Source of the DNA: an uncultured Gammaproteobacteria bacterium
GTDB lineage: Bacteria > Pseudomonadota > Gammaproteobacteria > UBA9214
NCBI GenBank assembly: GCA_963773065.1
Contig: CAVYZN010000012.1
Location: forward strand, 1-26,221
Length of the DNA stretch: 26,221 nucleotides
Direction of reading: 5' to 3'
The position numbers and the translations under genes were made by a program. Within the stretch, counting starts at the first letter, position 1. Every line of letters begins with the position of its first letter. Under the pieces are notes generated by a model. The model made no database searches and had not been told where the DNA came from. It saw nothing but the letters and a program-made list of their open reading frames with translations. Below, in pieces: positions 7,245-25,458 of the stretch.

Positions 7245-7715
7245 ATGCATCACGAAGCCAAATTGTTCATAGTCGCATCACTGGCGCTAGGCGCGGCCAC
7301 TGCGGTAGTCGCGGATGACGATGACGGTCGCCGTTATGCCACCAGTCACCCGGCATGGAAAGCCGAATGCGGCGGATGTCACGTCGCCTATCCGCCGCAG
7401 ATGCTGCCGACGCGTTCCTGGCGCGCCCTGATGTCTAATCTCAACAACCACTTTGGCACCGATGCCAGCCTCGATCCGCAGGTGGCGGCGGAGATCAGTG
7501 CATTTCTCGAACGCAACGCGGGACGCGAACGCACCCCGGCCGCACAGCCCGTGCTGCGCATCACCGAGACCCCGTGGTTCATACGCGAGCACGATGAGGT
7601 GCCCGCGCGGGTGTGGACGAGCGCGAACGTGGGGAGCCGCTCCAACTGCGGCGCCTGCCACGCGAACGCGGATCAGGGCAGTTACGGCGAAGGCAGCCTT
7701 CGCCTGCCGAAATAA
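7245..7715 (+). CDS. dhc: Diheme cytochrome c (DHC family)
   Basis: Signal peptide, ECGGCH..AYPP..LP..SW, HFGTDASLD, LRITETPWF..EHDE, NCGACH. AGGAG RBS. Confidence 0.9.
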   Translation: MHHEAKLFIVASLALGAATAVVADDDDGRRYATSHPAWKAECGGCHVAYPPQMLPTRSWRALMSNLNNHFGTDASLDPQVAAEISAFLERNAGRERTPAAQPVLRITETPWFIREHDEVPARVWTSANVGSRSNCGACHANADQGSYGEGSLRLPK

Positions 7716-7726
7716 CGGAGGTTGTT

Positions 7727-8336
7727 ATGGCAACACGCATACTTGTCTGGGATATCCCGACACGCCTTTTTCACTGGCTGCTCGCGGCGTCATTCGCTGG
7801 TGCCTTTCTGACCGCGGAATCGGAGCGGTACCGCGACGTGCACGTGGCGCTGGGTTACCTGCTGCTCGCGCTGATCGGATTCAGGGTCGTCTGGGGGCTG
7901 GTCGGCACGCGCTATGCGCGGTTCCGGTCGTTTGCCTTCCGGCCGTCGCAGGTGCTTTCCTATCTCAGATCGCTGCTGCGCTGTTCGCCGCAGCATTACG
8001 TCGGGCACAACCCCGCCGGCAGCTGGGTGATCTACGGGCTCCTGCTGCTGGGCGTACTGAGCGGCGTTACGGGTTATGCCACCTATAACGAACTGGGCGG
8101 CGAGGCGTTCGAGGAACTGCACGAAGCGTTCGCAAGCGCCATGCTCGCGCTGGTCACCCTGCATGTGGGTGGGCGTGATCGTAAGCAGCCTGCTGCACCG
8201 CGAGAATCTGGTGGGCAGCATGCTCAGTGGTTATAAAACGGGCCAGGCAGCGGAAGGTATACGCAACGCACGCTGGCTGACGGGCACCCTGCTCGTGGCA
8301 GGTGCCATGGCACTGGGGATCGGCGTATTGTGGTGA
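7727..8336 (+). CDS. Membrane cytochrome b (b561/CybH-like), +1 indel at ~8170
   Basis: VWDIPTRLFHW, HVALGY, FRVVWG..G..YARF, GHNPAG, ELHE, LHV; continues GVIVSSLLHRENLVGSMLSG in the next frame. Confidence 0.88.
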
Positions 8337-8337
8337 T

Positions 8338-9006
8338 ATGCGCATCTTGCTGGTTGAGGACGACACACTGCTGGGCGATGGCATCCGTGCCGGTCTGACG
8401 CAGGCCGATTTCGCCGTGGACTGGGTACAGGACGGTATCCTCGGCGATACTGCGCTGCAGACCGAGACCTATGCGGCCGTCGTCCTCGACCTGGGGCTGC
8501 CCCGGCTTTCCGGAGTGGACCTCTTGCGTGGAATCCGCGCGCGCGGCGATGCGACACCCGTGCTGATCCTTACAGCACGCGATGCGGTCGGCGATCGTGT
8601 GAAAGGCCTCGACAGCGGTGCCGACGACTATCTGATCAAGCCGTTCGACCTGGACGAACTGGCAGCGCGCTTGCGCGCCCTGATACGTCGCAGCCAGGGC
8701 AGCGCAGTGCCGGTACTCCGCCTGCATGGAGTCCTGCTCGACCCCGCCCAACACCGCGTCGAATACCAAGGCCAGCCGGTGGAACTCACGGCGCGCGAGT
8801 TCGCCCTATTGCAGGAACTCATGCTTAACGCCGGTCGTGTGCTCTCACGCGAACAACTGGAGCAGCGTGTCTATCCCTGGGGGGAGGAACTGGAGAGCAA
8901 CGCCATTGAGGTTCATGTCCACCATCTGCGGCGCAAGCTGGCACCGGAGCTGGTGCGTACGGTACGCGGCGTCGGCTACCTGATGCGAAAAGAGGACCAT
9001 GACTGA
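8338..9006 (+). CDS. OmpR-family response regulator (QseB/PmrA-like)
   Basis: MRILLVEDD, VLDLGLP, GADDYLIKPFDLDEL, winged helix SNAIEVHVHHLRRKL..RTVRGVGY. Confidence 0.95.
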   Translation: MRILLVEDDTLLGDGIRAGLTQADFAVDWVQDGILGDTALQTETYAAVVLDLGLPRLSGVDLLRGIRARGDATPVLILTARDAVGDRVKGLDSGADDYLIKPFDLDELAARLRALIRRSQGSAVPVLRLHGVLLDPAQHRVEYQGQPVELTAREFALLQELMLNAGRVLSREQLEQRVYPWGEELESNAIEVHVHHLRRKLAPELVRTVRGVGYLMRKEDHD

Positions 9007-10354
9007 GCGCATCCACGGACATTCGATCAGGCGCCGGCTGCTGCTGGCGCTGCTCGCCACGACGCTGCTGGTCTGGGGCGCAACCCTGCTCTTGAGCTAC
9101 CGCGATACGCGGCACGAACTGGATGAACTGCTGGATGCGCACCTTGCCCAGTCTACCTCTCTGCTGATTGCCCAGATCAGCCACGAGACCGACGAAATCG
9201 ACGTGGAGCATCCACCTCGACTGTACCACTACCAACGCAAGGTCGCCTTCCAGATCTGGGAACGGGGCAAGTCGCTGTTACTTCACTCCGCCAGCGCGCC
9301 CAATGTGCGACTGTCGCCCGCCGATCAGGGCTTCAGCGACAGTCTGGTCGGTGGCTCCACGTGGCGCGTGTTCAGCGCCTGGGACGACACGCGGCATTTT
9401 CTCATCCAGGTCGGCGAGCGACGCGAGGCGCGCGACGCGCTTGCCAACACCATCGCCAAGGCCATGTTGCTGCCTCTGCTGGTCGCGCTGCCGGTGCTGG
9501 CGCTGATGATCTGGTTCAGCGTGGCGCGGGCACTGCGCCCGCTGCAGGTGCTCGGTAGCCAGGTTGCGTTGCGACATGCGGACAACCTCGCGCCGATCGA
9601 GGCGGCCACCACGCCGAACGAGGTGCTACCACTGCTGCAAGGGCTCAACAAGCTGTTCGAGCGCATGCGCGCATCTATCGACAGCGAACGCGGCTTTACC
9701 GCCAATGCCGCGCACGAACTGCGCACGCCGCTCGCGGCGATCCGGACCCAAGCCCAGGTGGCGCGGGCCGCCAGCGACGAAGCGGAACGTCGGCGCGCGC
9801 TGGACAACGTCATCGCCGGTTGCGACCGTGCCGCGCACCTGACGGATTAGTTGCTGACGCTGGCGCGGCTGGAGCCGAACCAGCCGGTAGAGCGCGAGGC
9901 TGTCGATCTGAAGGCGCTGGTAGTGAACGTCGTGGCCGAACTCGCGCCTGCCGCTATCGCCAAAGACGTCGACCTGCAACTGGCGCCGGGTGTCGCGGTG
10001 GCGGTCGCGGGCTCGCCGGGACTCCTGGCGATAATGGTGCACAATCTCATCGACAACGCCATCCGCTATACCGCTCGCCACAGCGCGGTACAGGTGGAGA
10101 TCACGCCGACCGGCGACGGCGCCGAGTTCTCGGTGCTCGACCAGGGACCGGGCATTTCGGAGGACGAGCTGGGCCGTGTGTGGGACCGTTTCTATCGGGT
10201 GCTGGGCAGCGGCGAGACCGGCAGCGGCCTGGGGTTGTCCATTGTCAAGCGCATCGCCGAACTTCACGATGCTAAGGTGTCGCTCACACCGGTGGCGCGC
10301 GGCACCGGACTGCATGTCCGGGTGCACATCGCCGGCGGACAGGCGCACCGCTGA
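8999..10354 (+). pseudogene. QseC/PmrB-like sensor histidine kinase with an in-frame TAG at 9848-9850
   Basis: Two TM helices and H-box AAHELRTPL. The same frame continues after TAG (LTD*LLTLARLE) through NLIDNAIRY, DQGPG and GSGLGLSIV. Confidence 0.88.
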
Positions 10355-11524: not shown

Positions 11525-11831
11525 GGCAGCGTGTTGGGCGGATAGTCTAGGGGACTAGGGTGACCGCAGCGCCGTCACGATCCCGAACGACAAGTGCATA
11601 AGCCGCATGCCTTCCTTCCTGGTGCTTACAGACGTCAGTTGCCTGGCGACCGGACGGTTCATCCGTTCCGGCGGAGTTCTTCTGGGGTGTAGGCCAATGC
11701 TGGTTATCTCTGACACGAGATTCCGGAAACATTCCCTCGACTAGGACAAAAACTTGCCTCCGAAACATGCTGTGTCCTATCCATTCGCGTTTGGGTAACT
11801 AGCGGGTGTTATCCCAAATGACGTCCACATG

Positions 11832-11902
11832 GCCACGGAAGCACACGGAAAAACACGAAAGTTACGCTCTTTTTTTCCATGTCTTCGGTGTGATTCCGTG
11901 GC
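11832..11902. repeat. REP/MITE-like imperfect palindrome
   Basis: GCCACGGAAGCACACGGAA...TTCGGTGTGATTCCGTGGC, with internal CACGGAA iterations. Confidence 0.6.
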
Positions 11903-12066
11903 TATTTATCACGCTTGGGCACTTGATTAAGTGCCATTGGCCTTAAGGACGACTCCCCGTCCCATTCTGTCCGGCTAGACGTTGAAGGTTTGGCGGATCC
12001 CGCCAGCATGGTCCGGCGCGAGCGCCTTTCGCAGCAGCCGGCACACCCGCGGACAAGCACACGCGA

Positions 12067-14838
12067 TCAGTCTATGCCACCCCCGCCATGGCAGACCGAA
12101 CATCCCACGGGCTCGCCCTTGTGCACCAGCGTGCCGCGCAGGTTGCGATCCGCCTTGGCGACCGAGAGCACAGTACCCGTGTTGCTGGAGCGGGATCCCG
12201 CACCGTGGCACACCGAACAGTTGCTGCCGCTTGCCAGACTTTGATGGCCACCGCGGGCGAAACTGGTGTCGGCGCCCACCGGGTGCATGCCGTGCGGTCC
12301 ACCGAGGGTGTTGACGCTGTCCATGGCGGTGCCGTGACAGACGCTGCATTCCACGATGGCCCCCGTGTGCCCCTGCAGCTGGGTAGCCGGGACGTTGTCG
12401 TTCGCATTCGGGTTGGCGTTCGGCCATTCCGCATGGGTCGCCCCGTGGCAGCCCTCGCACATGACCCCGCCGTGACTGGTGCTCACGCGGTATAACCTCG
12501 GGTTGCCAGCCGCCGGATTGGCGAAGCCGTTGAAGGAAACCGGCACTGCGGGTTCCGCGAATCGCTTGTTGGTGGGGACGATCGGCGTGGCCTTGGCATC
12601 ACCGGTCTTCCAGGCTTGTCGCAGGCGAATGCCGTCGGTGTTGCCATTGGTGTCCACCGTATTGACCAGGGTCCCCGCCGTCCCCGCGAGGTTGTCGACC
12701 GCATCCCCCGTATGGCAGGAACCGCACCCGGGCTCGTTCGCCCACGGCACGCGCGGCTGACTGCTTGACGGGTCATAGAAGTTACCCTGATTCAGGATGA
12801 ACGTCCCCGGGTTGGACGGCGAAACGTTCTTGGAAAAGTCGTTGCCCACCTGCAGCATGCTGCCATGACAGTCGCTGCAGAGGATGTCCGCATTGAACAT
12901 CACCCCGCGCAGGCATTTCGTGTTCTTGCCCGGGTGGCACTGGTAGCAACTGTTATCCAGCGCCGACAGGCGCGCGGACTGGTTGCTGACGTTGCCGTTT
13001 GCATCCTGCGTGGGCGCCGGCATGGGTGGGAACAGGCTGGTAAACTGGCCATGGTAATTGTGCATCACGCGCGAATTGCTCTGGTGCGCCAGCTGGTTGC
13101 GGCCGTTGGCGTCGGTGCCAGGCGCGCCGGACATCGGTCCGACCTGCGCCAGATCCAGCGCCGGGGTGTAATGACAGACCTGGCACACCACCGGTTTGTT
13201 CTGCACCAGCGCCTTGTTGATCAGGCAGTTGGCGTCGCCGTCGCCGCCGTTGGTGTGGATGTCGCAGGGCGCGGTCTTATTGGCCGTGTCCACGTATTCG
13301 GCACCGTGCCGCAGGTCGTGCAGCCGCAGAATATTGATGTCCGCCGCATACTCGACACTCACTTTCATCGGCATGTTGCTGTCCGGATCGTCCAGGCTGG
13401 TGGCCACCGGCAGCCCGGCGTTGCGCAGCGCGTCGGTGGGCTGGCTGCTGCGGCTGTTCTGCACGTCGGTGGGATCGGAATGGCAATTGGTGCAGCTTGC
13501 CTCTCCGGAGATCGGCAGCACCGTATCCACCGTCGCCACAGTGGTGGTGCCGTTTTTCGCCTGCACGCGAACTAGCGGATAGGGGTTCTCGCGCCCGATG
13601 TCGTCGAAGGCCGAGAACGGGATGCCCGCGCCCTCGTACCAGTTGACGTCGTTGGCCACGTAGCCAAACGGGAAATTCACGAAAAACGGCTTGTTGACAT
13701 AGTGCTCCTGAATCGCCTGCGACGCATTCTGGGCATAGGGCATGGCAAGTCCCGGCATTGCGTACTGCACCGCCGTCAGTTGCTCGTCACCGCTGTTCAC
13801 CTTGCCGTCGGCGCCGATGTAGAGATCCTCCAAATTCGGCACCGGCAAGCCCACGTCGGCTGTGACCGGCTTAGTTGCACCGGCCAGACCGGTGGACAGC
13901 GGCGTGACCAGGGCCGGGTAGAACGCGTCATAGGCACCGAGCGGAATCACTTCCCAGAAGTTGGTCTTGTAGGTGGCGCCGTCGGGTCTCACCCCGTTCA
14001 GGACACCCGTCTGCCCCAGTATCGGGTCCGTCGGGTTATAGGCCGCCGAGTAGTAGAGACTCACGTTCGAGGGGTTGAGCGTCGGGGTGGAACCCTTCTG
14101 GATCACCTGGGCAAGCAGCACCTGGAACGGCGGCAGGATGCTCGCCACACGGGTGTCCAGATCCCCGCAGTGCATGCCGAGGTCATTGATCGCCAGCACG
14201 CTGTAGCTTGTGTTCGCAACCTGCGGCTGCCGCGGTACCACGCTGGTGATTTTGCCGCTGGAGGTCTGGCTGGTGGAATTGATCGAAACGCCAGGCGCCG
14301 ACGGGGTACCGCCGGTCACGGTAATCAACCGGCTTTGTAGCGGACAGGACGCACCCGCCGAGTCGGTCGCCTCCAGCGTGGTCACGAATACGCCAGCATT
14401 TGCATAGGACACCCTGACGGGATCTTCGACGCTGGCGTCTGCTGGCGTACCGCCGGAGAACGTCCAGTGGATGCTGACCGTGTCGCCCGCGTCAGGGTCG
14501 TTCACTGTCGCGGTGTAGGTTATGCTGTCACCCGACCTGATGGTGATATCGCCTGCCGGGGAATTGATCGCGCAGATCGGCGGGGTGTTGGCAGCCGTGC
14601 CGCCACCTACAGCTTCATTCTCACTGTCACCCCCACCACCACCCCCACCACCGCCGCAGGCGGTCAGACCGAGCAGTAGCAATGCTGTCAATGCTGCGGC
14701 ACAGCGGTGGGAAAATACACCGCGAGTCGGTTGCAGGTCATGGCACGGCCCCGACTGGATGCAACGACGCCACTGTGCTCGCGAAGCAAACGTCGCCGAC
14801 TTAAACGAATTGTGTACACACCATGATGTCCGAATCAT
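12067..14838 (-). CDS. Multiheme (9x CXXCH) c-type cytochrome lipoprotein with a PKD-like domain
   Basis: Lipobox LLLLGLTA-C then poly-Gly; PKD-like segment (WTFSGG..SYANAGVFVTTLEATD); NDLGMHC motif; CTNCH, CQVCH, CYQCH, CSDCH, CGSCH, CEGCH and CSVCH x3. The start is uncertain (ATG 14838 or TTG 14844). Confidence 0.9.
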   Translation of the reverse strand: MIRTSWCVHNSFKSATFASRAQWRRCIQSGPCHDLQPTRGVFSHRCAAALTALLLLGLTACGGGGGGGGGDSENEAVGGGTAANTPPICAINSPAGDITIRSGDSITYTATVNDPDAGDTVSIHWTFSGGTPADASVEDPVRVSYANAGVFVTTLEATDSAGASCPLQSRLITVTGGTPSAPGVSINSTSQTSSGKITSVVPRQPQVANTSYSVLAINDLGMHCGDLDTRVASILPPFQVLLAQVIQKGSTPTLNPSNVSLYYSAAYNPTDPILGQTGVLNGVRPDGATYKTNFWEVIPLGAYDAFYPALVTPLSTGLAGATKPVTADVGLPVPNLEDLYIGADGKVNSGDEQLTAVQYAMPGLAMPYAQNASQAIQEHYVNKPFFVNFPFGYVANDVNWYEGAGIPFSAFDDIGRENPYPLVRVQAKNGTTTVATVDTVLPISGEASCTNCHSDPTDVQNSRSSQPTDALRNAGLPVATSLDDPDSNMPMKVSVEYAADINILRLHDLRHGAEYVDTANKTAPCDIHTNGGDGDANCLINKALVQNKPVVCQVCHYTPALDLAQVGPMSGAPGTDANGRNQLAHQSNSRVMHNYHGQFTSLFPPMPAPTQDANGNVSNQSARLSALDNSCYQCHPGKNTKCLRGVMFNADILCSDCHGSMLQVGNDFSKNVSPSNPGTFILNQGNFYDPSSSQPRVPWANEPGCGSCHTGDAVDNLAGTAGTLVNTVDTNGNTDGIRLRQAWKTGDAKATPIVPTNKRFAEPAVPVSFNGFANPAAGNPRLYRVSTSHGGVMCEGCHGATHAEWPNANPNANDNVPATQLQGHTGAIVECSVCHGTAMDSVNTLGGPHGMHPVGADTSFARGGHQSLASGSNCSVCHGAGSRSSNTGTVLSVAKADRNLRGTLVHKGEPVGCSVCHGGGGID

Positions 14839-14840
14839 TA

Positions 14841-15647
14841 TCAACTGGCTCTTTGTTTAGCGAAGGAAATAAGCGTCGGCACTTGCTTGATGATCGTGCG
14901 ACTGACGATTCCCGGCAGGATCGCATTGAGGCGCGCGAACAGGCTTTCCGGGAAGCCGATATAGGCCTCTTCCCTATCCCTTTCAATGGCCAGTACGATC
15001 ATTTTCACCACCCATTGCGGATCATCCATATGTATCAGCTTGAGCTCTGCCATGCGGTGTACCACGGGCGGGTTGAACGGTGTTCTCACAGCGCGCGGAG
15101 AGACATAGGTGACGCCGACGCCGCTGCCGGTGAGTTCGCGGCGTAACGCCTGGGAGAAGCCGCGCAGGGCAAATTTGCTGGCCGAGTAAGCGGCGAAGCA
15201 GGGAAAACCGATACTACCGAACATCGACCCTATGTTGACGATGCGCCCGTGACGCCGCTCGATCATTTGTGGTAGTACGGAACGCGTCATTTGCATGGGG
15301 GCCTCGACGTTTACCTGGAGCAGGCGCTGTATCATGCCCGGGTCTTGCTCGTCGAAACGGACGAAGTCCATCACGCCAGCAAGATTGATGAGGATGTCGA
15401 TGCCCCCCCATGCCTGTATCATCATGTTGACGGCGCGTTCGCGATCTTCGGCACGCGTGAGATCAGCTTGTGTCGTCAATATTTCCGTCGGGAAACTTTT
15501 TAATTCACGCAATATGCGTTCGGCGTTTTCGTGAGTTCTGTCGAGCAGGCACAACCTGGCCTTGCGAGCCGCGAGTTGCGCGCACAATTCCCGGCCAATG
15601 CCACCGCCTGCGCCGGTGACGAGGATACGTTGCGATTCAAGATTCAT
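14841..15647 (-). CDS. Short-chain dehydrogenase/reductase
   Basis: TGAGGGIG, INLAG, VNIGS, YSASK; AAGGA RBS. Confidence 0.95.
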   Translation of the reverse strand: MNLESQRILVTGAGGGIGRELCAQLAARKARLCLLDRTHENAERILRELKSFPTEILTTQADLTRAEDRERAVNMMIQAWGGIDILINLAGVMDFVRFDEQDPGMIQRLLQVNVEAPMQMTRSVLPQMIERRHGRIVNIGSMFGSIGFPCFAAYSASKFALRGFSQALRRELTGSGVGVTYVSPRAVRTPFNPPVVHRMAELKLIHMDDPQWVVKMIVLAIERDREEAYIGFPESLFARLNAILPGIVSRTIIKQVPTLISFAKQRAS

Positions 15648-15725
15648 GCGTGTTTCCTTTTTAATTGCAATTCGTCGCGTGGGTCAGGGTGTGTTTGATT
15701 AACTCACCGTGCCCTTCAGTGCCTT

Positions 15726-16376
15726 TTACGTTTTGTCTTGAATCTTGGCAATGATGGCCTGGATCTCTTCGCGACGTCCCTGGTCGGCTAACGGCCGATT
15801 GGGGCGGGCGGGAGCATGCATGGCTTTGTCGAGGTAAGTCAGCGCCTCAGGATAGCGACCCTTGCGGTACAGGAAGTCGCCGTAGAAATAATTCGGGTCG
15901 ATACCAGCAGGGTTGATCTCCAGGGCTTTCTTCAGGAAGATCTCGGCTTTTTTGTCGTCGCCATAACTTATCGGCCAGCCAGGCACCTGATAGTAAAGGC
16001 TGCCGAGACTGGTATAGATGGAACCGTTCAGGGCGTCGGGATCGATCTTTTCCGCCTGTTCCAGGAGATCGCGGGCCTCTCGCACCATGCTCAAAGCACC
16101 CAACCCGCCTTTTGCGCCCGCGTGGGTGCTGAGAACGATAGCCTTCCATACCAGTGGCTCGGCATGCCCTGGATAGCGCGTGATCAGCGCGTCCACCATT
16201 TCTTCCACGTGGAGATAGGCAGCCGCTTGTTTGTCCTCCGGGATCTGGTAATGGACATGCTCCCATGCATGCTGAATCTCGACAATACCGTTGTTCAGAT
16301 CGGTATCCTGGGCAGCCGCCGTGGCGGAGAACAGAACCAGGAGCAGGATCGATAGCGCGTGTTGGATGCGTTGCAT
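15726..16376 (-). CDS. Secreted TPR-repeat protein
   Basis: Signal peptide ending AAA-Q, TPR-like helices (KALEINPAGIDPNYFYGDFL), and SLGSLYYQVPGWP. GGAG spacing favours ATG 16376 (alternative 16385). Confidence 0.85.
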   Translation of the reverse strand: MQRIQHALSILLLVLFSATAAAQDTDLNNGIVEIQHAWEHVHYQIPEDKQAAAYLHVEEMVDALITRYPGHAEPLVWKAIVLSTHAGAKGGLGALSMVREARDLLEQAEKIDPDALNGSIYTSLGSLYYQVPGWPISYGDDKKAEIFLKKALEINPAGIDPNYFYGDFLYRKGRYPEALTYLDKAMHAPARPNRPLADQGRREEIQAIIAKIQDKT

Positions 16377-16400
16377 AGGTGTCATCTCCAGTGTCTGGGT

Positions 16401-17048
16401 TTACTTGGATATGGAGCGGAAAATGTTTCCATACAGGTGATAAAACATGTTCGCGCAGTGGATCACCGTGTTCTGATCTTCGTCGCAAGTGATGCGGTTC
16501 ATCAGGTTCCGGAAAAACTCGATGTGTCCCTGATCCAGAACCCCGTGGGAATCGAGATAGCTGAAGGCGTTGTCAGGCAGGTTCAGGTGTTGCTTGATGA
16601 CCGCGGCCGCACTGGAGGCGATAGCTGCGCTGGTGCCTTCCAGCACCAGGACCATGCCGAAAAAGCCAACGGGGTTGCGTCGCTGAATCACGTCGTAGGC
16701 ATAGGACACCATCAATTCGGTGGCCGCGAACGGCGTTGCGTCGCGGGCCGCATTACGGTCGCCGCCGCAGGCCGTGATGTCGTCCAGAATCCACTCCTCG
16801 TGACCCGTTTCTTCCTCGATGTACTCGCCGACGGCCTCGCGCAACCAGGCGTAGTGCTCGGGTAACCGGCAGCCGCAACCCATCAGCAATGGTACGGTGT
16901 GCTTGACGTGATGGTAGGCCTGTTCCAGAAAGGTGATGTAATCCTCCCTGGTGATGTCGCTATGCAGTGCGCGTTGCAGGATGGGTATCGCCAGGAATTT
17001 CTCTCGCTCGGTGTCGGTGGCGGCGAGGAGCCGGTCATGGAATGGCAT
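16401..17048 (-). CDS. Heme-oxygenase-like diiron enzyme (TenA/PqqC/CADD superfamily)
   Basis: Helical fold with YHHVKH, EEETGHE, VLEGTS and H-x3-D-x2-H (HGVLDQGH) metal-ligand pattern. ATG lies 4 nt after the upstream stop. Confidence 0.85.
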   Translation of the reverse strand: MPFHDRLLAATDTEREKFLAIPILQRALHSDITREDYITFLEQAYHHVKHTVPLLMGCGCRLPEHYAWLREAVGEYIEEETGHEEWILDDITACGGDRNAARDATPFAATELMVSYAYDVIQRRNPVGFFGMVLVLEGTSAAIASSAAAVIKQHLNLPDNAFSYLDSHGVLDQGHIEFFRNLMNRITCDEDQNTVIHCANMFYHLYGNIFRSISK

Positions 17049-17052
17049 GTTA

Positions 17053-18525
17053 TTACGTTGCCTTGTACAGCCATTCAATCTGTCTGGAATACCTGGCGGC
17101 GATGGCCTGACGGTTAAGTACACCGACACCGTTGGCGAGACCGTTGTGGCTGCAGAAGGGTTCGACGGCGACGATCCAGTCTTTTACCCGCGCATAGTCG
17201 GGCAACGTTTGATTCAGGGCCTCGATGTCCGGTCCGATCCGTGCTCCCGCGGCCGCGTCGCAGGGCACGACCACGGCGATGTTCCAGTCGCGTCCCTCGC
17301 CGAATAACGCTGCCTGGGCGATGGCAGACGTTCCGGTCAGTTCGCTTTCGATCCACTCGGGGGCGAGCTTGCGGCCATGCGCCGTCGCGAACGCGGTTTT
17401 CTTGCGCCCGGTGATACGAAGATTACCGTCGCTGTCGAGGAAACCGATGTCACCTGTCGCCCATTCTTCAAGGGAACGGAAGGGCTGGCCGAGGTAACCG
17501 CTGAAGAGATTACCGCCAACCACAATCTCGCCGTCCGCAGCGATGCGTACCCTGGTATGGGGTAACGGACGTCCGACGCTCCCGATGCAGTTCTGCCCGG
17601 GGACATTCATGCTTACCACAGACGCTGCTTCCGAGAGCCCGTAACCTTCGTAGACCGGGAGGCCCAGGGCGCGGGCCCGATTCAACAGCAGCGGGGAGAC
17701 GGGCGCGCCGCCCACCGCGATAAAACGCAGCGACGACGGCATGCGCACGCCCTGCGTGGCAGCCTCGACCAGTATTTTCAATAAATGCGGAACCAGAACG
17801 GTTACTGTCGGCTGGTAATGATTCAGCGTCGCAATGAGCTGATCGGCGCGTACCCCCGTGGAACCATGGATTCCGCAATCCGAGAGATCGGGCACACAGG
17901 CCGTGCTTCCGCAGAAAAGCGGTGTGTATAGTCCTGCGATATTCGCCAGCAAGGTGGAGAGCGGCAGCAGGGTGAGAGCCTTATCCTGGCCGGAGGCGCC
18001 GACGGCCGCACCCAGCGAAGCGGTGACACGCTCCATGGCCGTGCCCGTCAGGCATACCCCCCTCGGCTGTCCGGTGGTGCCCGAGGTGTAGGTGATTTTG
18101 GCGGTGGACGGCGGCAAGGCAGCACTTTCCGTCTGTGTGATGACGAAGCAGGCCAACGTTTTTCCTGCCACTGTGATTCCCTTCTCCAGACGGGCAAGAG
18201 CAAGATTCAGCACGCGTGACGGTTGGTCGCTTATGATCAACTCCAGCCCGGCGTCGACGATCAAGTGCTGTAACTGCCGGTCGGAGAAAAACGATGGCAT
18301 GGGGATGCACGCGGCACCCCGGTGGTGCGCTGCCAGATCCAGGATCGCCCATGGGCATCCGTTGGCGAGCAGAAGACCGATCCTTTTCAACTGCAGGGTG
18401 GAGCCAATCCGCTCGATTTCCTGTTTCAGTTCACGATAGTTAAGGGAAATGCCGCCGTCGGCAAGGGCAGTGTGACGGGGGCGTTTCCTGGCGAACCAGG
18501 CAATGCGGTCGAGTATCGCTTGCAT
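17053..18525 (-). CDS. AMP-dependent ligase (ANL/acyl-CoA synthetase-like)
   Basis: YTSGTTGQPRG, VGGAP, YEGYGLSE, ATGDIG, GRKK. Confidence 0.92.
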   Translation of the reverse strand: MQAILDRIAWFARKRPRHTALADGGISLNYRELKQEIERIGSTLQLKRIGLLLANGCPWAILDLAAHHRGAACIPMPSFFSDRQLQHLIVDAGLELIISDQPSRVLNLALARLEKGITVAGKTLACFVITQTESAALPPSTAKITYTSGTTGQPRGVCLTGTAMERVTASLGAAVGASGQDKALTLLPLSTLLANIAGLYTPLFCGSTACVPDLSDCGIHGSTGVRADQLIATLNHYQPTVTVLVPHLLKILVEAATQGVRMPSSLRFIAVGGAPVSPLLLNRARALGLPVYEGYGLSEAASVVSMNVPGQNCIGSVGRPLPHTRVRIAADGEIVVGGNLFSGYLGQPFRSLEEWATGDIGFLDSDGNLRITGRKKTAFATAHGRKLAPEWIESELTGTSAIAQAALFGEGRDWNIAVVVPCDAAAGARIGPDIEALNQTLPDYARVKDWIVAVEPFCSHNGLANGVGVLNRQAIAARYSRQIEWLYKAT

Positions 18526-18528
18526 GAG

Positions 18529-19266
18529 TTAAACCGCCTCGCGGATGGCCGGTGATTCGTCCAGGCGGCTGCTTGCACCCAGATGCTGCGCTTCCTGCAT
18601 CAGTGCATGGAGTCTGGGCTGGCGTTGCGAGATATGGGCGCTCAACTTTTTGTACCCGGCTTCGATGTTACCGGCGTATACCATCGGTCCGGCTTCATAA
18701 TAGCTGCCCCAGTTGTTGCCGCCGTCCGCCAGGCGTTTGGGGTCGGGGGTGGCAATTTGAACGGGTCTCAGTCCCAGACGCTGGAAGGCGTTGAACACGG
18801 GTTTGACGGCGGTAAACAACACCCAGCGGTAGCCTGCGGCCTGCAGGAGCACCGTCATCGCCGCAATGACCCAGCGCGCTTCGCCCATGCCGGTGAGGGC
18901 CAGATTACCCACTTCCACCACGTGACGGCGTTCGACGGTTTGATCGAGATGCGTGGTCATCACCTTTTCCACGGGCATGTCCAGGTACTGTTCGGAGAAC
19001 AGCGGTTGCGCCATGCCGTTGCGGTAACCGACGACACCGCGGATCTGGCCGCCGGTGGTAAAGGCGGTCAGGTTCGGATAGAACACGCGCAACTCCGCAC
19101 CGTAGGTTTGCTGGAAGGTGTGGTGAATAAAGCATTCCAGCGGTTTGCGTCCTGTGTCGTGCTGACCGCGGCAGTGGATCCTGACGGGGTCACGCAATTC
19201 AGTGAGCAGGGGCTGGACGCCCGCGACGATACAGGGGTTGTGTTCGAGTTCGGCTGTGATATTCAT
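18529..19266 (-). CDS. 'Thermostable hemolysin' family protein (GNAT-like putative acyltransferase)
   Basis: F..TYGA, LFSEQYLD, VVEVGNLA, WVLFTA, WGSYY..GP family motifs; no signal peptide. Alternative start 19293. Confidence 0.85.
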   Translation of the reverse strand: MNITAELEHNPCIVAGVQPLLTELRDPVRIHCRGQHDTGRKPLECFIHHTFQQTYGAELRVFYPNLTAFTTGGQIRGVVGYRNGMAQPLFSEQYLDMPVEKVMTTHLDQTVERRHVVEVGNLALTGMGEARWVIAAMTVLLQAAGYRWVLFTAVKPVFNAFQRLGLRPVQIATPDPKRLADGGNNWGSYYEAGPMVYAGNIEAGYKKLSAHISQRQPRLHALMQEAQHLGASSRLDESPAIREAV

Positions 19267-19316
19267 CCTGGCGCCTTTTAGTTGCTGCCTCATGAAAGGT
19301 CTGCTGCCAGGACTGT

Positions 19317-19333
19317 AGCCAGCTTCATGCCAA
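19317..19333 (-). promoter_or_regulatory. sigma54 (-24/-12) promoter
   Basis: Minus strand TTGGCATGAAGCTGGCT has exact GG-N10-GC spacing, directly upstream of the operon; a sigma54 activator is encoded nearby. Confidence 0.7.
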
Positions 19334-19390
19334 CTTTCTATTACATTGATAACTATGAATTAGTTAGGAAGAGGTGCAGCGATTCTCTGT

Positions 19391-19420
19391 TACAAAAGTT
19401 TGCAGTGCGCAAAAATTGTA
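19391..19420. promoter_or_regulatory. Candidate enhancer (UAS) for the sigma54 activator
   Basis: Imperfect dyad TACAAAAGTTTGC-AGTGC-GCAAAAATTGTA about 85-115 bp upstream of the predicted start. An IHF-like TATCAATGTAATA (19339-19351, minus) lies between it and the promoter. Confidence 0.45.
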
Positions 19421-19434
19421 CGAGGAATTCTGCA

Positions 19435-19947
19435 CTAGTTTGACTGCCCGGCGTCCCGGGCGGGTAGGCAAAGTTTCGCTAACGCCTCGCGTTGCGAGGG
19501 CGCTACGGGAATCGCCAGCACTTCCTTGACCCGTGCATCGAGACGACACGCGGCGATATAGCCAATGGCTCCCGGTGTCTTTGCAACGAACTGCACCACC
19601 GCCTCTTGTGAACTGAGGACATAGGGGGGCGCAACACCCTGGAAGTAACGCTGGTTCCAGTAGTCCTGAAGCTGTTGCGCGCTTTTGTTGAAGAGAGTTT
19701 CCGCCAGGCTCAGGCGCAGGGGATTTTCGGGGAGCAGATTGACGGGGACAAAAGGACGTCCGTTATCATCCATGAAAATCTTTTTCAGATAGATATCGCG
19801 CAACATAACCCGATTGATGGAAAAATCAGGAGCATCCGTGGCGACGATAATGATGATGATCTCGTCCCTTGCCGATGCCGGGTCATACCACATCAGGGCC
19901 AGCAAGACCATGGCGCATCTCGTCAGGTGGCGAGTGTGACCTGTCAT
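19435..19947 (-). CDS. Small exported periplasmic binding-like protein (PstS-like PBP2 half domain)
   Basis: Signal peptide; LRDIYL, YWNQRYFQGVAPP, VVQFVAKTPGAIGYI. Confidence 0.75.
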   Translation of the reverse strand: MTGHTRHLTRCAMVLLALMWYDPASARDEIIIIIVATDAPDFSINRVMLRDIYLKKIFMDDNGRPFVPVNLLPENPLRLSLAETLFNKSAQQLQDYWNQRYFQGVAPPYVLSSQEAVVQFVAKTPGAIGYIAACRLDARVKEVLAIPVAPSQREALAKLCLPARDAGQSN

Positions 19948-19951
19948 GGCA

Positions 19952-21040
19952 CTAGAAAAGGATCGCCAGCGAGCCTAGCCAGCCGCTGGGTGCCATGATC
20001 TCGTTGTGATGGCCGTCGCGATATTCGAATTTAACCGACACTGCCCTGTGCGGACGGTAGGCGATCCCCACGGTGTCGATGGTGGCGGTAGGCGAGATAG
20101 CGGGCGCCTGGTATTTTTCATACCGTCCTACAAGGTAAAAGTATCCGGGAAGAGGCAGTACTGCCTGAACGAAACCGCCGTGTTCATTCGGGTCTGTGGA
20201 GCCGAGGCTGTTGCGGTAAACCCATTCCCCGCTGAACTCCATGCGCTTGACTGTCCACAGGGCATCTGCACCAATCAGCTCCTGGGTGTCCTGCAAGTCA
20301 GACAGCTTGAAACGCACGTAGGAGACGCCGACCTGAACGGCATCGTCCATGAAGTGATAGGCAACCCGGCCGCCCGCCGCCCGCTTGAAGGCATTGTGGG
20401 GAGAGGTGCCCGATGTGTCGTCCTCGAAAGCGAGCTCATCTCTCTGTGTGGGGTCCAGAGGTCCGCTGTCATCGGCGTACAGGCTGTAATCCAGGCTGTT
20501 CCCGCCGACAGCGATGTCACCGTACAGCATCGCGCCGGTCGCATGCCGTGCAAAGGGCGCGGTCGTGGTGACCGGTCGGTCCGCAGTCCACATCAGCGGA
20601 TCGGCATGGATTACGTTCCAGCGTCCCACCGGGGTGAGGTATTTGCCGAAGCGTAAATTGATCGCATTTGTCGCCCGGTAGTCGGCATACAACCGCTCCA
20701 GATCGAGCTCCGTATGCCTGCCGGTGACGCCGTCGTGAGACAACTGCATGGCATCGCCGAGTTCTATTTCGGAGAACAGTTGCCAGCGTTTCGTGAGCGT
20801 TTTACTGACGAACAGGCTGATGTCCCGTGCCGTGAAATTCCAGTCCTTATTCTTCAGGTTGGAGTAGTAAAGGCTCAGGTAACCGCCGACGACGAGGTTT
20901 TGCTGCGGAAAGTTCAGGCCTTGCCCCAGGCTATAGGGATCGGGGTTCCAGATAGTGTTTTCGCCCGGGGCGGCGGCGGATGAAAAGCCGGCAATGAGCA
21001 GCAGGAATCCCAGTCCGGCGCCGGGTCTCGATAGGGACAT
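19952..21040 (-). CDS. Outer-membrane beta-barrel/porin-like protein
   Basis: Signal peptide, amphipathic strands (LERLYADY, NLRFGKYLTPVGRWN, VKFEYR) and C-terminal Phe. Alternative start 21085. Confidence 0.8.
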   Translation of the reverse strand: MSLSRPGAGLGFLLLIAGFSSAAAPGENTIWNPDPYSLGQGLNFPQQNLVVGGYLSLYYSNLKNKDWNFTARDISLFVSKTLTKRWQLFSEIELGDAMQLSHDGVTGRHTELDLERLYADYRATNAINLRFGKYLTPVGRWNVIHADPLMWTADRPVTTTAPFARHATGAMLYGDIAVGGNSLDYSLYADDSGPLDPTQRDELAFEDDTSGTSPHNAFKRAAGGRVAYHFMDDAVQVGVSYVRFKLSDLQDTQELIGADALWTVKRMEFSGEWVYRNSLGSTDPNEHGGFVQAVLPLPGYFYLVGRYEKYQAPAISPTATIDTVGIAYRPHRAVSVKFEYRDGHHNEIMAPSGWLGSLAILF

Positions 21041-21257
21041 TACTAGACCACCCTGCGCCGAGTCGGGGAGAATGGCGAGGCGCAACGATGCATGGGAACC
21101 TTATATGTAAGGAGTCGAGGTAAGCCGTCACTGATTTGCGGACCATTGCCGCAGATGAAGTCGCCCGAAAAATAGCAGGCTTTTGTTAAATAAGATAGCC
21201 CTGGTGTGCGATGACTACTGACTGCGTAGAATGACCGCAGGCGGAAACGGAAGGCGA

Positions 21258-23051
21258 ATGACAAGAGTGCCCGTGACGATTAACAAAGCCCTGCTGCGGG
21301 CCTTTTTCGCGCTGGTCTTCGGCGCCGTTGTTCTGCTGGGGGCGTTGTCTTTCTATCAGTTCCGCCAGACCCTGCAGGCGGAGATTGCCAACAATCTGCA
21401 ATTTGGCGCGAACGCGGTGATGCAACGCATCGATGCCTTCTTTTTCGAGCGGATGGAAAACATCCGTATCTGGCGTCGCCTGGAGGTGATGCAGGACATC
21501 CGGGTGAATGACGTCGACAAGCGTTTATCGGTCTTCCTTTCGGATTTGCAAAAGGGACACGGCCATGTCTATCACCTTCTGTTGTGTACGGACAGGGACG
21601 GCAAGGTAGTCGCGGCGAGCGATCCTGCGTGGATCGGACGCAGGAAGGTTCCCGGGGGTGTCTGGCAGAAGATACCAGGCGCCGGTCTTGACGAACCCGT
21701 CGTGCTGGAGCCGCTGCAGGTCGATGATGCGACGACGGTGGCCATGCGCACCACGGTACCCGATGCGTTTAGCAAGGGAGAGCTGGGTTATTTCTATGCC
21801 GTCATGGGTTGGGAGGAGGTATGGGATCTGCTGGATGATGCGGTGATGAACAGCGCGCGAGAAGCCTTGCTGCTCGATGCCGCGGGCAGAGTCATCGCCG
21901 CCTCTGCTGCATTGCGCCAGCGGCAGGGGATCGACGGACTCGACCTCAAGGGCTGGTACACGCACAGCCACGGCAAGAACCCCGAGATCCGTGACGGTGA
22001 CCTGCTCGGATACTCCGCGCTGCTGGTGGGCGGCGCCGCGTCGGGCGGATATCAACATTTCCCTGGCTTCGGCTGGCACCTGCTCATGGTGGTACCCACC
22101 ACGGTTGCCTTCGCTCCGATCTGGCATTTGCTGATCGCCATGGTGATTTTATTGTTGTTGACCCTGTTGGCGGCGGGATGGCTCTCGACGCGCCTGGCGG
22201 CGAGGATCGCCCGACCCATCATGGGATTAACAGAGTTAACGCGCCGGTATCGCAAAGGGGAACAAATCAAACCGGCGAACACGCCGGCGACACTGTCCGA
22301 GGTGGGTGAGCTGACCCGGGCGTATACCGATATGATCGGGGCGCTGGAACGCTCGCGTGTGCAGATCGTGCGCGCGGGAAAGCTGGCTGTGGTGGGCGAG
22401 ATGGCGGCGGTGATGGCCCACGAGGTGCGTACGCCGTTGGGGATTCTGCGTTCTTCCGCGCAGATGCTGGAACGGCAGCCTGATCTGGGTGAAAGGGAAC
22501 GCGAGCTGACAGGCTTCATCATCAGCGAAACCGATCGTCTAAATCGTCTGGTGAGCATGTTGCTGGAATGCGCCAGTCCCCGGGCTCCGGACTTCAAGCC
22601 TCATGATATTCATGCGGTCGCCGGTCATGTGCTCGACCTGCTGGCATCCCGGGCGGTAGGCAAGGGCGTGCAGTTGCAACGGGAACTGACGGCACAGCAT
22701 TCCATCCTGGTGTGCGATCGCGAGCAACTGATCCAGGTTTTCCTTAACCTGGTGATCAATGCCTTGCACTTCGTGCCAGCAGGGGGGCGCATCGTCATCG
22801 CCACGCGCAACGAACAGGGTTCGATCGTGGTCAGCGTCTCCGACGACGGTCCCGGCCTCCCCGCCGAACTGCGGCAGCGGGTATTCGATCCGTTCTTCAC
22901 GCGGCGCGAAGGCGGCATCGGCCTCGGCCTGACCATCGTGCAGCAGATCGTGCAGGTGCACCATGGTGAAATCCGGATGACGGAAAGTCCATGGGGCGGT
23001 GCCTGTTTCACTATCCGCTTCGACAGCTACGACGAGGGTAACGAGCACTGA
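21258..23051 (+). CDS. Sensor histidine kinase (large Cache-like periplasmic domain, HAMP, HisKA, HATPase)
   Basis: Two TM helices ~260 aa apart; MAHEVRTPL, QVFLNLVINA, DDGPG, FDPFFT, GIGLGL. Alternative start 21231. Confidence 0.93.
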   Translation: MTRVPVTINKALLRAFFALVFGAVVLLGALSFYQFRQTLQAEIANNLQFGANAVMQRIDAFFFERMENIRIWRRLEVMQDIRVNDVDKRLSVFLSDLQKGHGHVYHLLLCTDRDGKVVAASDPAWIGRRKVPGGVWQKIPGAGLDEPVVLEPLQVDDATTVAMRTTVPDAFSKGELGYFYAVMGWEEVWDLLDDAVMNSAREALLLDAAGRVIAASAALRQRQGIDGLDLKGWYTHSHGKNPEIRDGDLLGYSALLVGGAASGGYQHFPGFGWHLLMVVPTTVAFAPIWHLLIAMVILLLLTLLAAGWLSTRLAARIARPIMGLTELTRRYRKGEQIKPANTPATLSEVGELTRAYTDMIGALERSRVQIVRAGKLAVVGEMAAVMAHEVRTPLGILRSSAQMLERQPDLGERERELTGFIISETDRLNRLVSMLLECASPRAPDFKPHDIHAVAGHVLDLLASRAVGKGVQLQRELTAQHSILVCDREQLIQVFLNLVINALHFVPAGGRIVIATRNEQGSIVVSVSDDGPGLPAELRQRVFDPFFTRREGGIGLGLTIVQQIVQVHHGEIRMTESPWGGACFTIRFDSYDEGNEH

Positions 23052-24421
23052 TGGAAACACACAGGATTCTGGTGGTCGACGATGAAGTGAAGATGCGCCG
23101 CTTGCTGGAGATGGCCCTGAAGAACATGGGGCACGACGTGGTTCAGGCCGCCGACGGTGCGGAGGCCATGGCCTATTTCGATGAAGCGCCCTTCGACCTG
23201 GTGATGACCGACCTCAACATGCCGCGCATGGATGGCATGCAGCTACTGAGAAATTTGCGGGAGCGGGGCGAGGAGGTTCCGGTGATCGTACTGACCGCCT
23301 TCGGCACCATCGAAACGGCGGTGGAGGCCATGAAGCTGGGGGCCGCCGATTACATTATCCGGCCCTTCGAGATAAATACCGTGGAACTGGCGGTGACGCG
23401 TGCGCTTGCCACGGGGGCCATGCAGCGCGAGAACCGTTTCCTGCGCGATGAGGTCGAGCGGGGATGGGGCGAGTTCATCGGGCGCAGTCCGAAGATGCGC
23501 GAACTCTACGATCTCATCCGGCAGGTGGCGCCGGCGCGCAGCAGCGTGTTGATCGCTGGAGAAACCGGCACCGGCAAGGAACTGGTGGCACGCGCCATTC
23601 ACCAGGCCTCGGGGCGCGGTGGCCTGTTCGTGCCCATCAACTGCGCGGCCATCCCCGCCGACTTGCTGGAAAGCGAACTTTTTGGCCACCAGAAGGGCGC
23701 ATTCACCGGCGCCCATCGCGACCGCATGGGCAAATTCGAGCTGTCCAGCGGCGGAACGATGTTCCTCGACGAGGTCGCCGAAATGCCACTGGGTCTACAG
23801 GCCAAGCTGTTGAGGGTGTTGCAGGAAGAGACGGTGGAGCGGCTGGGCGCGCAGCGTGCCATCAGGGTCGATCTGCGTATCGTCGCGGCCACCAACCGCG
23901 ATCCACAGCTGGCAGTGGATGACGGCGCAATGCGCCAGGATCTGTTTTTCAGGTTGAACGTGGTGCGCGTTGACGTGCCACCCTTGCGGGAGCGGCGCGA
24001 GGACATTCAATTACTCGCCGGGCATTTCCTGCAAAAATACAGCAGCGAACTGGGTCGCCCGGTGCCGCGCCTGACCGAGGCGGTGACGCAGAGTCTGATG
24101 GCCTATTCGTGGCCGGGAAACGTCCGCGAACTGGAAAATCTCATGGAACGCGCCAGCGTGCTGTGCCGCGGCACGACGGTTGATCTGCAACTGGTCCCGG
24201 CGGATATGACCGCCGCTACTCTCGCCCCGCTTTCCGCCCCGGCGATCAGCAGCGCCGGAGAACCCGAATCGCTGGTGCTGGAAGACCGGGTCTCCGCATT
24301 GGAGAGACGCTTGATAACGGTGGCGCTGGAGCGCAGCGGCGACAGCAAGGCCGCGGCCTCGCGCCTGCTCGGGGTCAGCGAGCGCACCCTGTGGTACAAG
24401 ATCAAGAAATACGGCCTGTAG
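23051..24421 (+). CDS. sigma54-dependent response regulator (NtrC/AtoC family)
   Basis: Receiver domain (VVDDE, TDLNMP), GETGTGKE, ESELFGHQKGAFTGA, FLDEV, WPGNVREL, Fis-type HTH; TGATG coupling to the kinase. Confidence 0.96.
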   Translation: METHRILVVDDEVKMRRLLEMALKNMGHDVVQAADGAEAMAYFDEAPFDLVMTDLNMPRMDGMQLLRNLRERGEEVPVIVLTAFGTIETAVEAMKLGAADYIIRPFEINTVELAVTRALATGAMQRENRFLRDEVERGWGEFIGRSPKMRELYDLIRQVAPARSSVLIAGETGTGKELVARAIHQASGRGGLFVPINCAAIPADLLESELFGHQKGAFTGAHRDRMGKFELSSGGTMFLDEVAEMPLGLQAKLLRVLQEETVERLGAQRAIRVDLRIVAATNRDPQLAVDDGAMRQDLFFRLNVVRVDVPPLRERREDIQLLAGHFLQKYSSELGRPVPRLTEAVTQSLMAYSWPGNVRELENLMERASVLCRGTTVDLQLVPADMTAATLAPLSAPAISSAGEPESLVLEDRVSALERRLITVALERSGDSKAAASRLLGVSERTLWYKIKKYGL

Positions 24422-24466
24422 CGCGCCGAATCGGGATTGTGGCGGTCAGACTACCTGGCTGGCCCC

Positions 24467-24566
24467 TCACCGTCGCCCTTTCAGGCACAAGGCGAGAACT
24501 CCCCAGGTAAGAACGCGATCCTTCACCGCACACCCGCCGGATTTACGCCGCCTGCGCCTTGGCCAC
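24467..24566 (-). other. Remnant of a group II (class C-like) intron ribozyme 5' region
   Basis: Minus strand GCGTAAATCCGGCGGGTGTGCGGTGAAGGATCGCGTTCTTACCTGGGGAGTTCTCGCCTTGTGCCTGAAAGGGCGACGGTG resembles class C intron sequence upstream of the RT ORF as I recall it. No RT ORF or domain V is present. Confidence 0.55.
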
Positions 24567-24615
24567 TAGCCCAACTTGGCGGATTCGGCCTCGATTTTGA
24601 GGGTGTCACAAAGCG

Positions 24616-24705
24616 TTCTCGGGCCTGGTCAGACACCCAGGTGCCGGCTTCATCTGCCTTCAGGATAGTGATGATCTGTTCTTCGATAAATCGCTTTCAC
24701 TTCAT
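24616..24705 (-). pseudogene. IS3-family transposase OrfA N-terminal remnant
   Basis: MK*KRFIEEQIITILKADEAGTWVSDQARE compared with the consensus MKKxRFTEEQIIxILxEAEAGxxVxDLxR. Confidence 0.7.
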
Positions 24706-24740
24706 GTTGCGACCTCTCTCGGTCAGAGTCGGATGGAGAG

Positions 24741-24985
24741 TCATAATAAATCCCCCTTATCCTCCCCCACTGCTCCTCCCACACCAGCGGCGTCCCCGCC
24801 GCCAGGTCGAACAGCGTCACCTCCGGCGGCAGCGTCTCGTCCAGGATGGCGGCAACGATATCGGGTGCCAGCGTGGTCAGGTTGACCATGCGGCTCACGT
24901 AGCTGTCGTCGATCCCCTTCATGTACGGACAATCTCCTTCATGGACTTCGCCTCACCCGATTCCAACAGGGCCAGCCAGCGGTGC
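24741..24985 (-). pseudogene. 3' part of the small HTH protein that accompanies island serine recombinases
   Basis: HRWLALLESGEAKSMKEI / GIDDSYVSRMVNLTTLAPDIVAAILDETLPPEVTLFDLAAGTPLVWEEQ; 5'-truncated and frameshifted at ~24922. Confidence 0.7.
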
Positions 24986-25458
24986 CTGTGGCGATCTTCG
25001 TAGGTAATCGCATGGTCTAAGTTCGGCAAAAATCCGCTTCATATCCCTTACTCTGTCCATACACGGTTTATTACTTACTGATTAAATTGGTCGTTTGTAT
25101 TCAATTTTAGGGTCGACCGAATGTTTATTGACTAGATGGTTGGTGGATGATTACTGCTCAAGTACTCGTGGTAAGATAGCCAAACGTCGGTCCCTGCATA
25201 ATAAGTCGTGAACCAGTTAGAATATCGTCAATCACGGGGAACCCATATTTGTCGTTATTACGAGTTCACTAATGACAACGCACGTCCACAGAGACAGACG
25301 TCGTGGCAATCCCATATCATCCTTTAACGGTTGTTGATAACATCCATAGCCACGCCATGTTGTCGATTCAACCTTGTTTCATCAACACGCACTCGCACCC
25401 ATTGCGGCGGATCTTTGTTTAGCAGAACTTCCACCTATTTCTGCGCGGGTATATCTAT

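Follow-up and report, generated by a model that had tools for sequence, protein, structure and literature searches.

A PF12261 "Hemolysin" Cassette Facing an Outer-Membrane Sensor Module in an Uncultured Gammaproteobacterium: A Candidate Sense-and-Make Unit with an Adjoining Nonaheme Cytochrome

The contig CAVYZN010000012.1 of an uncultured gammaproteobacterium of the lineage UBA9214 (assembly GCA_963773065.1) was analysed over its whole length of 26,221 nucleotides, referred to below as the window. Between positions 12067 and 24421, it carries ten open reading frames (ORFs), of which nine, and not all ten, very probably constitute one conserved unit. The nine comprise a biosynthetic cassette of five genes, the first of which belongs to the "thermostable hemolysin" family PF12261, and a sensor module of four genes for an outer-membrane β-barrel, a half-sized periplasmic binder, a Cache-type kinase and a sigma54 activator. 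At the level of sequence comparison, the five-gene cassette is headed by a conserved sigma54 promoter that is faced by the likewise conserved module. The best explanation, to which we assign a probability of roughly 0.45, is a sense-and-make unit of nine genes whose interchangeable output slot has taken up one passenger, a nonaheme surface cytochrome.

The genome (3.84 Mb, completeness 91%, contamination 6%) contains an rpoN match as well as matches to dsrA and RuBisCO, the latter two indicating a sulfur-oxidising autotroph. The assembly carries indels, e.g., in dsrA and in a nearby cytochrome b gene; all ten ORFs in question are open at the positions given below. An earlier sequence-only reading had described ten intact ORFs, nine hemes and a GG-N10-GC site in this region; these features are real, and the families found fit the labels it had used.

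Conservation of the Cassette and the Sensor Module

The cassette was mapped in 41 loci, i.e., 34 class matches above cut-off from a sample of 400 genomes of the class, five from relatives, one from Pseudomonas and one on a metagenome contig. PF12261 matches were present in 35/400 class genomes and in 5 of 40 relatives. Among the 41 hemolysin loci, the ligase and the SDR oxidoreductase are present in 39, the heme-oxygenase-like diiron oxidase (HDO) in 38 and the TPR protein in 34. A two-component system adjoins 38 of these loci, which is OmpR/QseBC-like in 29 and the window-type module in nine (eight scored by script and the frameshifted locus L033 read from the map). The conserved neighbourhood anticipated by the sequence-only reading holds for barrel, binder, kinase and activator (9/41 loci) and fails for the cytochrome (0/41).

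Approached from the binder, homologues were found in 89/400 class genomes, a count that includes the unpublished G063. The ten closest binder loci (E ≤ 3e-22) all possess barrel, kinase and activator; downstream of them follows a full cassette in five, a partial cassette in two, a cytochrome in one and other genes in two. The module kinases form one branch uniting the window with nine others, including G162 (SH-aLRT 99), and a branch of the hemolysin tree sets apart the eight module-type hemolysins included (SH-aLRT 94; not starred). Both are quick trees with SH-aLRT support only, the kinase tree omitting G134 and G039, and the hemolysin tree L033 and L107. Taken together, the sequence data support that the four genes of the module are a conserved, co-inherited partner of the cassette.

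Eleven out of 52 plasmid records were inspected; four contain the five-gene form, four have hemolysin and ligase with TauD in place of HDO, and in two the hemolysin lacks an adjacent ligase. On a Novosphingobium plasmid, ligase and HDO are fused, and behind the fusion gene lie a gene annotated as TatT and genes for an ECF sigma factor, FecR and a TonB receptor. Searches for related loci with single proteins as queries found only two loci in named genomes and no locus in viral contigs; of 80 metagenome loci returned for the activator, one was relevant, and no close barrel was found in a phylum sample of 300 other genomes. On the Streptomyces plasmids L190, L191 and L197, hemolysin, ligase and TauD lie inside biosynthetic clusters, one of which adjoins genes presumably resembling a nitrous-acid pathway and has a gamma-butyrolactone locus beside it. 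At L022 (genome G246), an unrelated decaheme lipoprotein gene (5417-7432) follows the TPR gene, and EptA is divergent from the two-component pair.

The Sigma54 Promoter

The −24/−12 promoter with its GG-N10-GC signature (19317-19333, minus strand) lies between binder and hemolysin, preceded at a distance of about 86 bp by a candidate upstream activator site (19406-19435, minus strand). Since the site comes after the binder gene, barrel and binder are upstream of the promoter; they share the divergent region with the kinase, and six genes follow the sigma54 site with intergenic gaps of 3, 4, 15, 78 and 2 nucleotides. Taken alone, the site is weak, as 800 sites of the genome score equally well. 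Its credibility stems from sites at the equivalent position in relatives, which reach a shuffle p ≤ 0.04 in 10 of the 13 regions tested (the misses being G290, with p 0.13, and two loci without cassette or cytochrome), in support of the earlier reading of a biosynthetic cassette behind a sigma54 promoter. The upstream 12-mer was found in 6 of 186 loci, including four copies of the window/G001 promoter and one copy elsewhere in L045; p-values for the upstream site are circular at the source loci, given that the consensus was built from these same loci. When the genome was scanned for the promoter together with the upstream motif, 12 of the 800 promoter-like sites were weak double matches, and none was convincing beyond that of the window itself.

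Enzymes and Carrier Encoded by the Cassette

The first gene of the cassette (18529-19266, minus strand; ORF open from 19293) encodes the PF12261 protein, a LuxI/FeeM-like GNAT by predicted fold. The best structural matches of its model (pLDDT 93.7) in Foldseek are FeeM, LasI, MesI, TofI and RpaI. FeeM is the top match (2g0b, E 1.8e-5), superposing with Z 13.0 and a root-mean-square deviation (rmsd) of 3.8 over 171 residues, and TofI and LasI superpose with Z 14.5 and an rmsd of 3.0-3.4 over 161-167 residues. By sequence, only PF12261 was matched at E ≤ 0.01, which leaves the protein outside the FeeM family, and a PDB search with the hemolysin profile gave no match at E ≤ 10. LuxI enzymes bind S-adenosylmethionine through conserved Arg, Phe, Trp, two Asp and Arg residues; inspected by eye, the hemolysin family keeps a GxR motif and an invariant Glu, with no matching Trp or acidic pair evident. 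LuxR is not found in the window, where the regulators are the sigma54 activator and an OmpR-type protein. Based on the model, we predict that the "hemolysin" has an enzyme fold, namely that of a LuxI/FeeM-like amide synthase, and not a toxin fold.

The second gene (17053-18525, minus strand) encodes an AMP-binding adenylating enzyme of the ANL family with its ATP motifs kept; the columns of the P-loop, AVGG and GYGLSE motifs are invariant in 29 sequences. The column assigned, by its motif, to the usual C-terminal catalytic lysine (A10) holds Lys in 3/29 and Arg in 17/29 sequences, and Val in the window. In the HDO (16401-17048, minus strand; Haem_oxygenas_2), E81, H84, E138, H169, D173 and H176 (numbering of alignment A3) are invariant in 23/23 sequences and are candidate diiron ligands; CADD is characterised by such a six-ligand pattern of Glu, His and Asp. 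The SDR oxidoreductase (14841-15647, minus strand) scores above the NCBIfam cut-off for PRK09072.

The TPR gene (15726-16385, minus strand) encodes a candidate carrier of a hydrophobic product, with a signal peptide that, by inspection, lacks a lipobox. Its model (pLDDT 94.9) matches BstC, the TPAT/TatT protein Es_TatT and Tp0956 (TM-scores of 0.71 to 7t1s, 0.78 to 8g52 and 0.66 to 3u64), matches of moderate weight, as helical repeats match easily. Proteins of the BstC/TatT type bind sterols or fatty acids, according to the portion available of PMC11713862, and the model predicts a lipid carrier for the TPR protein as well. Given the LuxI/FeeM-like predicted fold of the hemolysin and the TatT/BstC-like one of the TPR protein, a hydrophobic acyl-amide is the probable product of the cassette, and both folds together point to an amide that would reach the periplasm; the previous proposal of an acyl compound is strengthened by these models. 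No product is reported in the literature found on the cassette, in a search that was not aimed at the barrel/half-binder pair.

The Sensor Module

The module consists of two divergent gene pairs. The barrel gene (19952-21040, minus strand) encodes 362 amino acids with a C-terminal Phe and a weak Porin_O_P match; a sequence search found no solved relative. It is followed by the gene for the secreted binder (19435-19947, minus strand), of which about 145 residues match one part of PstS only, corresponding to a single lobe. Divergent from the barrel, the sensor histidine kinase (21231-23051, plus strand) contains dCache_1 (below cut-off), HisKA and HATPase domains, and the adjoining activator (23051-24421, plus strand) is of the NtrC/AtoC type, with receiver, AAA+ and Fis HTH domains and AtoC as the best NCBIfam model, below cut-off. 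The binder has no second lobe and no ABC genes are among the scanned window ORFs, which sets it apart from PstS-type systems. With only half a binder and no inner-membrane transporter in the window, "import", as the sequence-only reading had it, was an overstatement.

A complex of barrel and binder was predicted with an ipSAE of 0.83, compared with 0.00 for the best of three controls; at least 83% of contacts are common between runs, and partner pLDDT is at least 82. The ipSAE mark was reached by 116/157 solved and by 2/215 mismatched pairs, a calibration that is only roughly applicable with the alignments used here. The predicted contacts lie on the C-terminus, the first strands and short turns of the barrel, a surface that we interpret as its periplasmic mouth; the binder contributes a conserved aromatic loop (YW/F-x-G). 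In the model, the half-binder thus closes the barrel on its periplasmic side, which supports binding of the two proteins at the level of a prediction. An adjoining same-strand ORF of 300-520 amino acids with an aromatic last residue accompanies 31 of 38 further binder matches, though only eight matched the barrel profile.

Two loci (L087:5779-8181 and L088:5962-8553) encode, behind a barrel-like gene, a half-binder fused to a lytic transglycosylase with LysM, which hints at a cell-wall link. In G134 (L072:10515-16357), the module precedes genes for a P-loop protein, a member of the tyrosine phosphatase family, a PEP-utiliser domain, a 729-aa protein and an SDR.

The Nonaheme Cytochrome

The tenth ORF (12067-14838, minus strand) encodes an NDLGMHC-type PKD lipoprotein cytochrome with nine CxxCH motifs and a lipobox-like LTAC. 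Its start is uncertain, since the leader of 60 residues is about 25-30 residues longer than in the closest homologues and the assembly has indels elsewhere. The heme region has no solved relative. A Methylococcus sp. protein is a 64% match, and homology to MCA0421 itself is our assumption. Methylococcus surface multihemes of the c553o type (MCA0421) are described, in the sections available of two reports, as large, metal-controlled and implicated in extracellular electron transfer (PMC6281684, PMC4831470). A further nonaheme protein is presented without a signal peptide in the accessible part of a preprint (bioRxiv 10.64898/2026.01.22.701106).

The sequence-only reading had counted the cytochrome as a member of the system, and had named its absence from other such neighbourhoods as evidence against this. 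The gene is not a neighbour of the cassette at any of the 41 other loci; in 39 of these, the sequence available downstream extends for at least 6.9 kb. Cytochrome matches occur in 22/400 class genomes; three of these genomes also have a hemolysin (about 1.9 expected), always on other contigs, and none of 19 mapped cytochrome loci (from 16 of the 22 class genomes, twice from G001, and from G004) contains cassette genes. A kinase/regulator pair is situated within one or two genes of the cytochrome in 6 of the 19.

The genus relatives G001 and G004 keep a cytochrome orthologue behind an LMF1/DCC1 gene, and the genome of the window has the same site, without the cytochrome and with synteny on both sides, on contig C8. 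The orthologue being kept elsewhere in relatives and the ancestral site being empty here, the cytochrome appears to have moved in recently. Identity to G001 ends at the SDR stop; DNA identity is 87-92% for module and cassette and 81% for the cytochrome, like the syntenic background. The gene is, thus, best taken as native, its move to a place behind the module being recent; the module itself looks to have been shared more recently. The absence from other cassette loci and the empty C8 site led us to reject the cytochrome as a fixed member.

A link between module and cytochrome is provided by G162, where an orthologue of the module stands, without a cassette, directly before a member of the cytochrome family that is 40% identical to that of the window, together with a strong sigma54 site and the upstream 12-mer known from the window (0/200 shuffles). 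As G162 places sensor, promoter and upstream site before the same family, the cytochrome is a plausible recruited output; the link comes from one genome, since the only genus relative of G162 (55% complete) gave no binder match. Co-regulation of the cytochrome by the module is rather likely in the window.

The G162 locus also has a gene for a small secreted Cys/Lys-rich peptide near the binder (L071:163-429), which has no Pfam match and which we take to resemble bufferin precursors, and a thioredoxin-like gene and ApbE after the cytochrome (L071:9036-10515). Two more NDLGMHC-type cytochrome genes with Calx-beta-like front ends are present in the genome of the window (G000:C23:63047-67102 and 92061-95898), both split by frameshifts or stops.

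Proposed Mechanism and Alternative Explanations

In the sense-and-make unit as we envisage it, the ANL enzyme would activate an acid, the GNAT would join the activated acid to an amine, and the diiron oxidase and SDR would tailor the resulting amide, which the TPR carrier would move through the periplasm as a hydrophobic product. Product accumulated outside may enter the barrel and be passed by the half-binder cap towards the Cache domain, upon which the activator would raise the operon further, amounting to autoinduction. The output would be whatever sits behind the promoter, here the nonaheme surface cytochrome, which is probably co-transcribed. That the sensor recognises the product of the cassette is put forward tentatively, at somewhat less than even odds; among single loops, autoinduction is the most likely.

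Several observations weigh against this reading. The same cassette pairs with unrelated kinases, and therefore a regulated output suits it as well as a signal. The module is found without the cassette in G162, G134 and G039 and with a partial one in G227 and G290, hence it does not need the product genes to be adjacent. Neither Lys nor Arg occupies the C-terminal position of the ANL enzymes in the clade of the window, a receptor is among the scanned neighbours in only 8 of 35 loci of the wider binder family, and genes for iron, copper and lipid A functions are among the neighbours seen in plasmid records. The broadest version, in which PF12261 cassettes are widespread but unrecognised signal synthases, the porin and half-binder form the receptor for a Cache kinase, and lineages independently recruit extracellular electron-transfer cytochromes, is unlikely.

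In a serious alternative, the sensor would respond to Fe(II), copper, a redox-active small molecule or a similar external cue, and the cassette would be no more than an output, making an envelope lipid or a metal-binding acyl compound alongside heme and iron proteins. This is possible, and we consider such a metal- or envelope-stress output about as likely as autoinduction. It accords with the occurrence of the module without the cassette and with the genes found near cassettes, i.e., cupredoxin, FTR1 permease and a family-39 glycosyltransferase, HiPIP and VIT, PepSY with cytochrome b and lipid A genes, EptA, and cytochrome b/SHP/DHC within the cassette itself in 2/41 loci. Likewise, a QseC-like or other sensor pair is a usual component of SHP operons (PMC2909971), and one QseBC system is reported to respond to catecholamines plus iron (PMC4660874), both as stated in the portions available. 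However, the best structural matches of the synthase are autoinducer synthases, module and cassette are co-inherited, and the window holds no O-acyltransferase for a membrane aminolipid. If, on the other hand, the "hemolysin" were a true protein toxin which its neighbours activate or export, the Pfam and record annotation would be explained, along with the citation of VP1729 of V. parahaemolyticus as a hemolysin in the available part of PMC10469919. This is highly improbable, considering the predicted GNAT fold without an evident signal peptide, on which account the toxin was rejected, and the company of ANL and TauD in Streptomyces biosynthetic clusters; moreover, N-acyl amino acids are capable of causing hemolysis on their own and thereby offer a precedent for clones that appear "hemolytic" (PMC5643525, PMC4897644, as far as their available text goes).

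Concerning the cytochrome, it is doubtful that it is merely a neutral passenger or an assembly artefact, unregulated by the module, for which its absence from the other cassette loci and the patchwork of blocks common to different relatives in this region would speak. The same holds for the G001 and G004 orthologues behind LMF1/DCC1, without a good sigma54 site in G001, and for the assembly indels. None of the contig pieces compared bridged the SDR-cytochrome junction, a result that is uninformative by itself. Against a neutral passenger stand the 2 nucleotides between the SDR stop and the cytochrome ATG with no terminator-like site detected, the clean empty C8 site with two-sided synteny, as predicted for a real move, and G162, which independently links module and cytochrome. 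Delivery of a cofactor or modification to the cytochrome by the TPR protein, as the sequence-only reading had considered, would fit the tight adjacency in the window and the decaheme lipoprotein after the TPR gene in L022, but is very unlikely. The L022 cytochrome is unrelated, the TPR fold is that predicted for a lipid carrier, and 19 of the 22 cytochrome genomes of the class sample have no hemolysin match; we rejected this possibility on three single-contig genomes with the cytochrome that match neither hemolysin nor HDO.

Flanking Regions

Searches of the window for tRNAs and Rfam families matched nothing. A repeat of about 110 bp with many dispersed copies in the genus lies just past the cytochrome (11829-11938). 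Further on, 1.7 kb past the cytochrome, a block (6783-10354) encodes SHP, DHC, cytochrome b and a QseBC-like pair and, as a unit of its own, shares 92% identity with G002; its kinase has an in-frame stop (9848-9850) and its cytochrome b a frameshift. ISL3 transposase pieces occupy the left end of the window (1-1265), short mobile-element-like remnants lie to the right of the activator (24437-25003), and one contig joint links 14235 to 24530.

Significance and Comparison with Known Systems

The cassette occurs also in Vibrio, where its first gene has traditionally been listed as a hemolysin, and the predicted folds make it a testable orphan pathway that, by fold and family, comprises a ligase, an amide synthase, a diiron oxidase, a reductase and a lipid carrier. 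The pair of barrel and half-binder is widespread; provided that the predicted complex is real, it would represent a new architecture for outside-in sensing. The cytochrome link illustrates how, in a sulfur-oxidising autotroph, a switch of this kind can come to govern a surface redox protein.

The elements expected of a sigma54-dependent operon are present, namely the −24/−12 site, the candidate upstream site, the activator and rpoN. The same gene set is found in the dth/delta-VPH region of Vibrio (VCA1110-VCA1111; VP1729-VP1735), for which the available parts of PMC12208996, PMC10469919 and PMC3652848 contain no product assignment. Hemolysin, the ligase DthC, an iron-containing redox enzyme and a QseC-like kinase are neighbours or predicted partners there (PMC12208996 and PMC10469919, same parts). 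The window differs in its sensor, where a Cache kinase, a sigma54 activator, the barrel and the half-binder take the place of QseBC. The HDO resembles CADD/TenA-like diiron oxidases in its PF14518 membership, a match to PDB 3dde and the six invariant candidate ligands; it remains far below the cut-off of the CADD equivalog TIGR04305 (25.9 vs. 200 bits), and differs in that its slot is taken by TauD in some clusters. BstC is, like the TPR protein, encoded beside biosynthetic genes, as far as the available text of PMC11713862 extends. In contrast to BstABC/TatT, the TPR protein is shorter and apparently soluble rather than a lipoprotein, has no TRAP or RND partner in the window, and scores below the BstC model cut-off (29.3 vs. 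350 bits).

Classical cell-surface signalling, composed of a TonB receptor, FecR and an ECF sigma factor, shares with the module the coupling of an outer-membrane barrel to a transcription switch, and on one plasmid the cassette is paired with just such a TonB/FecR/ECF system, another outside-in sensor. The module, however, employs a porin-like barrel of small size, a separate single-lobe protein as the predicted cap where the TonB receptor has a plug domain, and a kinase/sigma54 output. On the synthase side, the hemolysin has its fold in common with the CoA-dependent LuxI enzymes RpaI, BjaI and MesI and with FeeM, and the ligase encoded alongside gives a signal-like logic, but identity is only 9-17%, and the window adds an oxidase, a reductase and a periplasmic carrier while lacking LuxR. 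The system would, thus, fall outside both groups, its working resembling that of a CoA-dependent LuxI or FeeM system to which cell-surface sensing is coupled.

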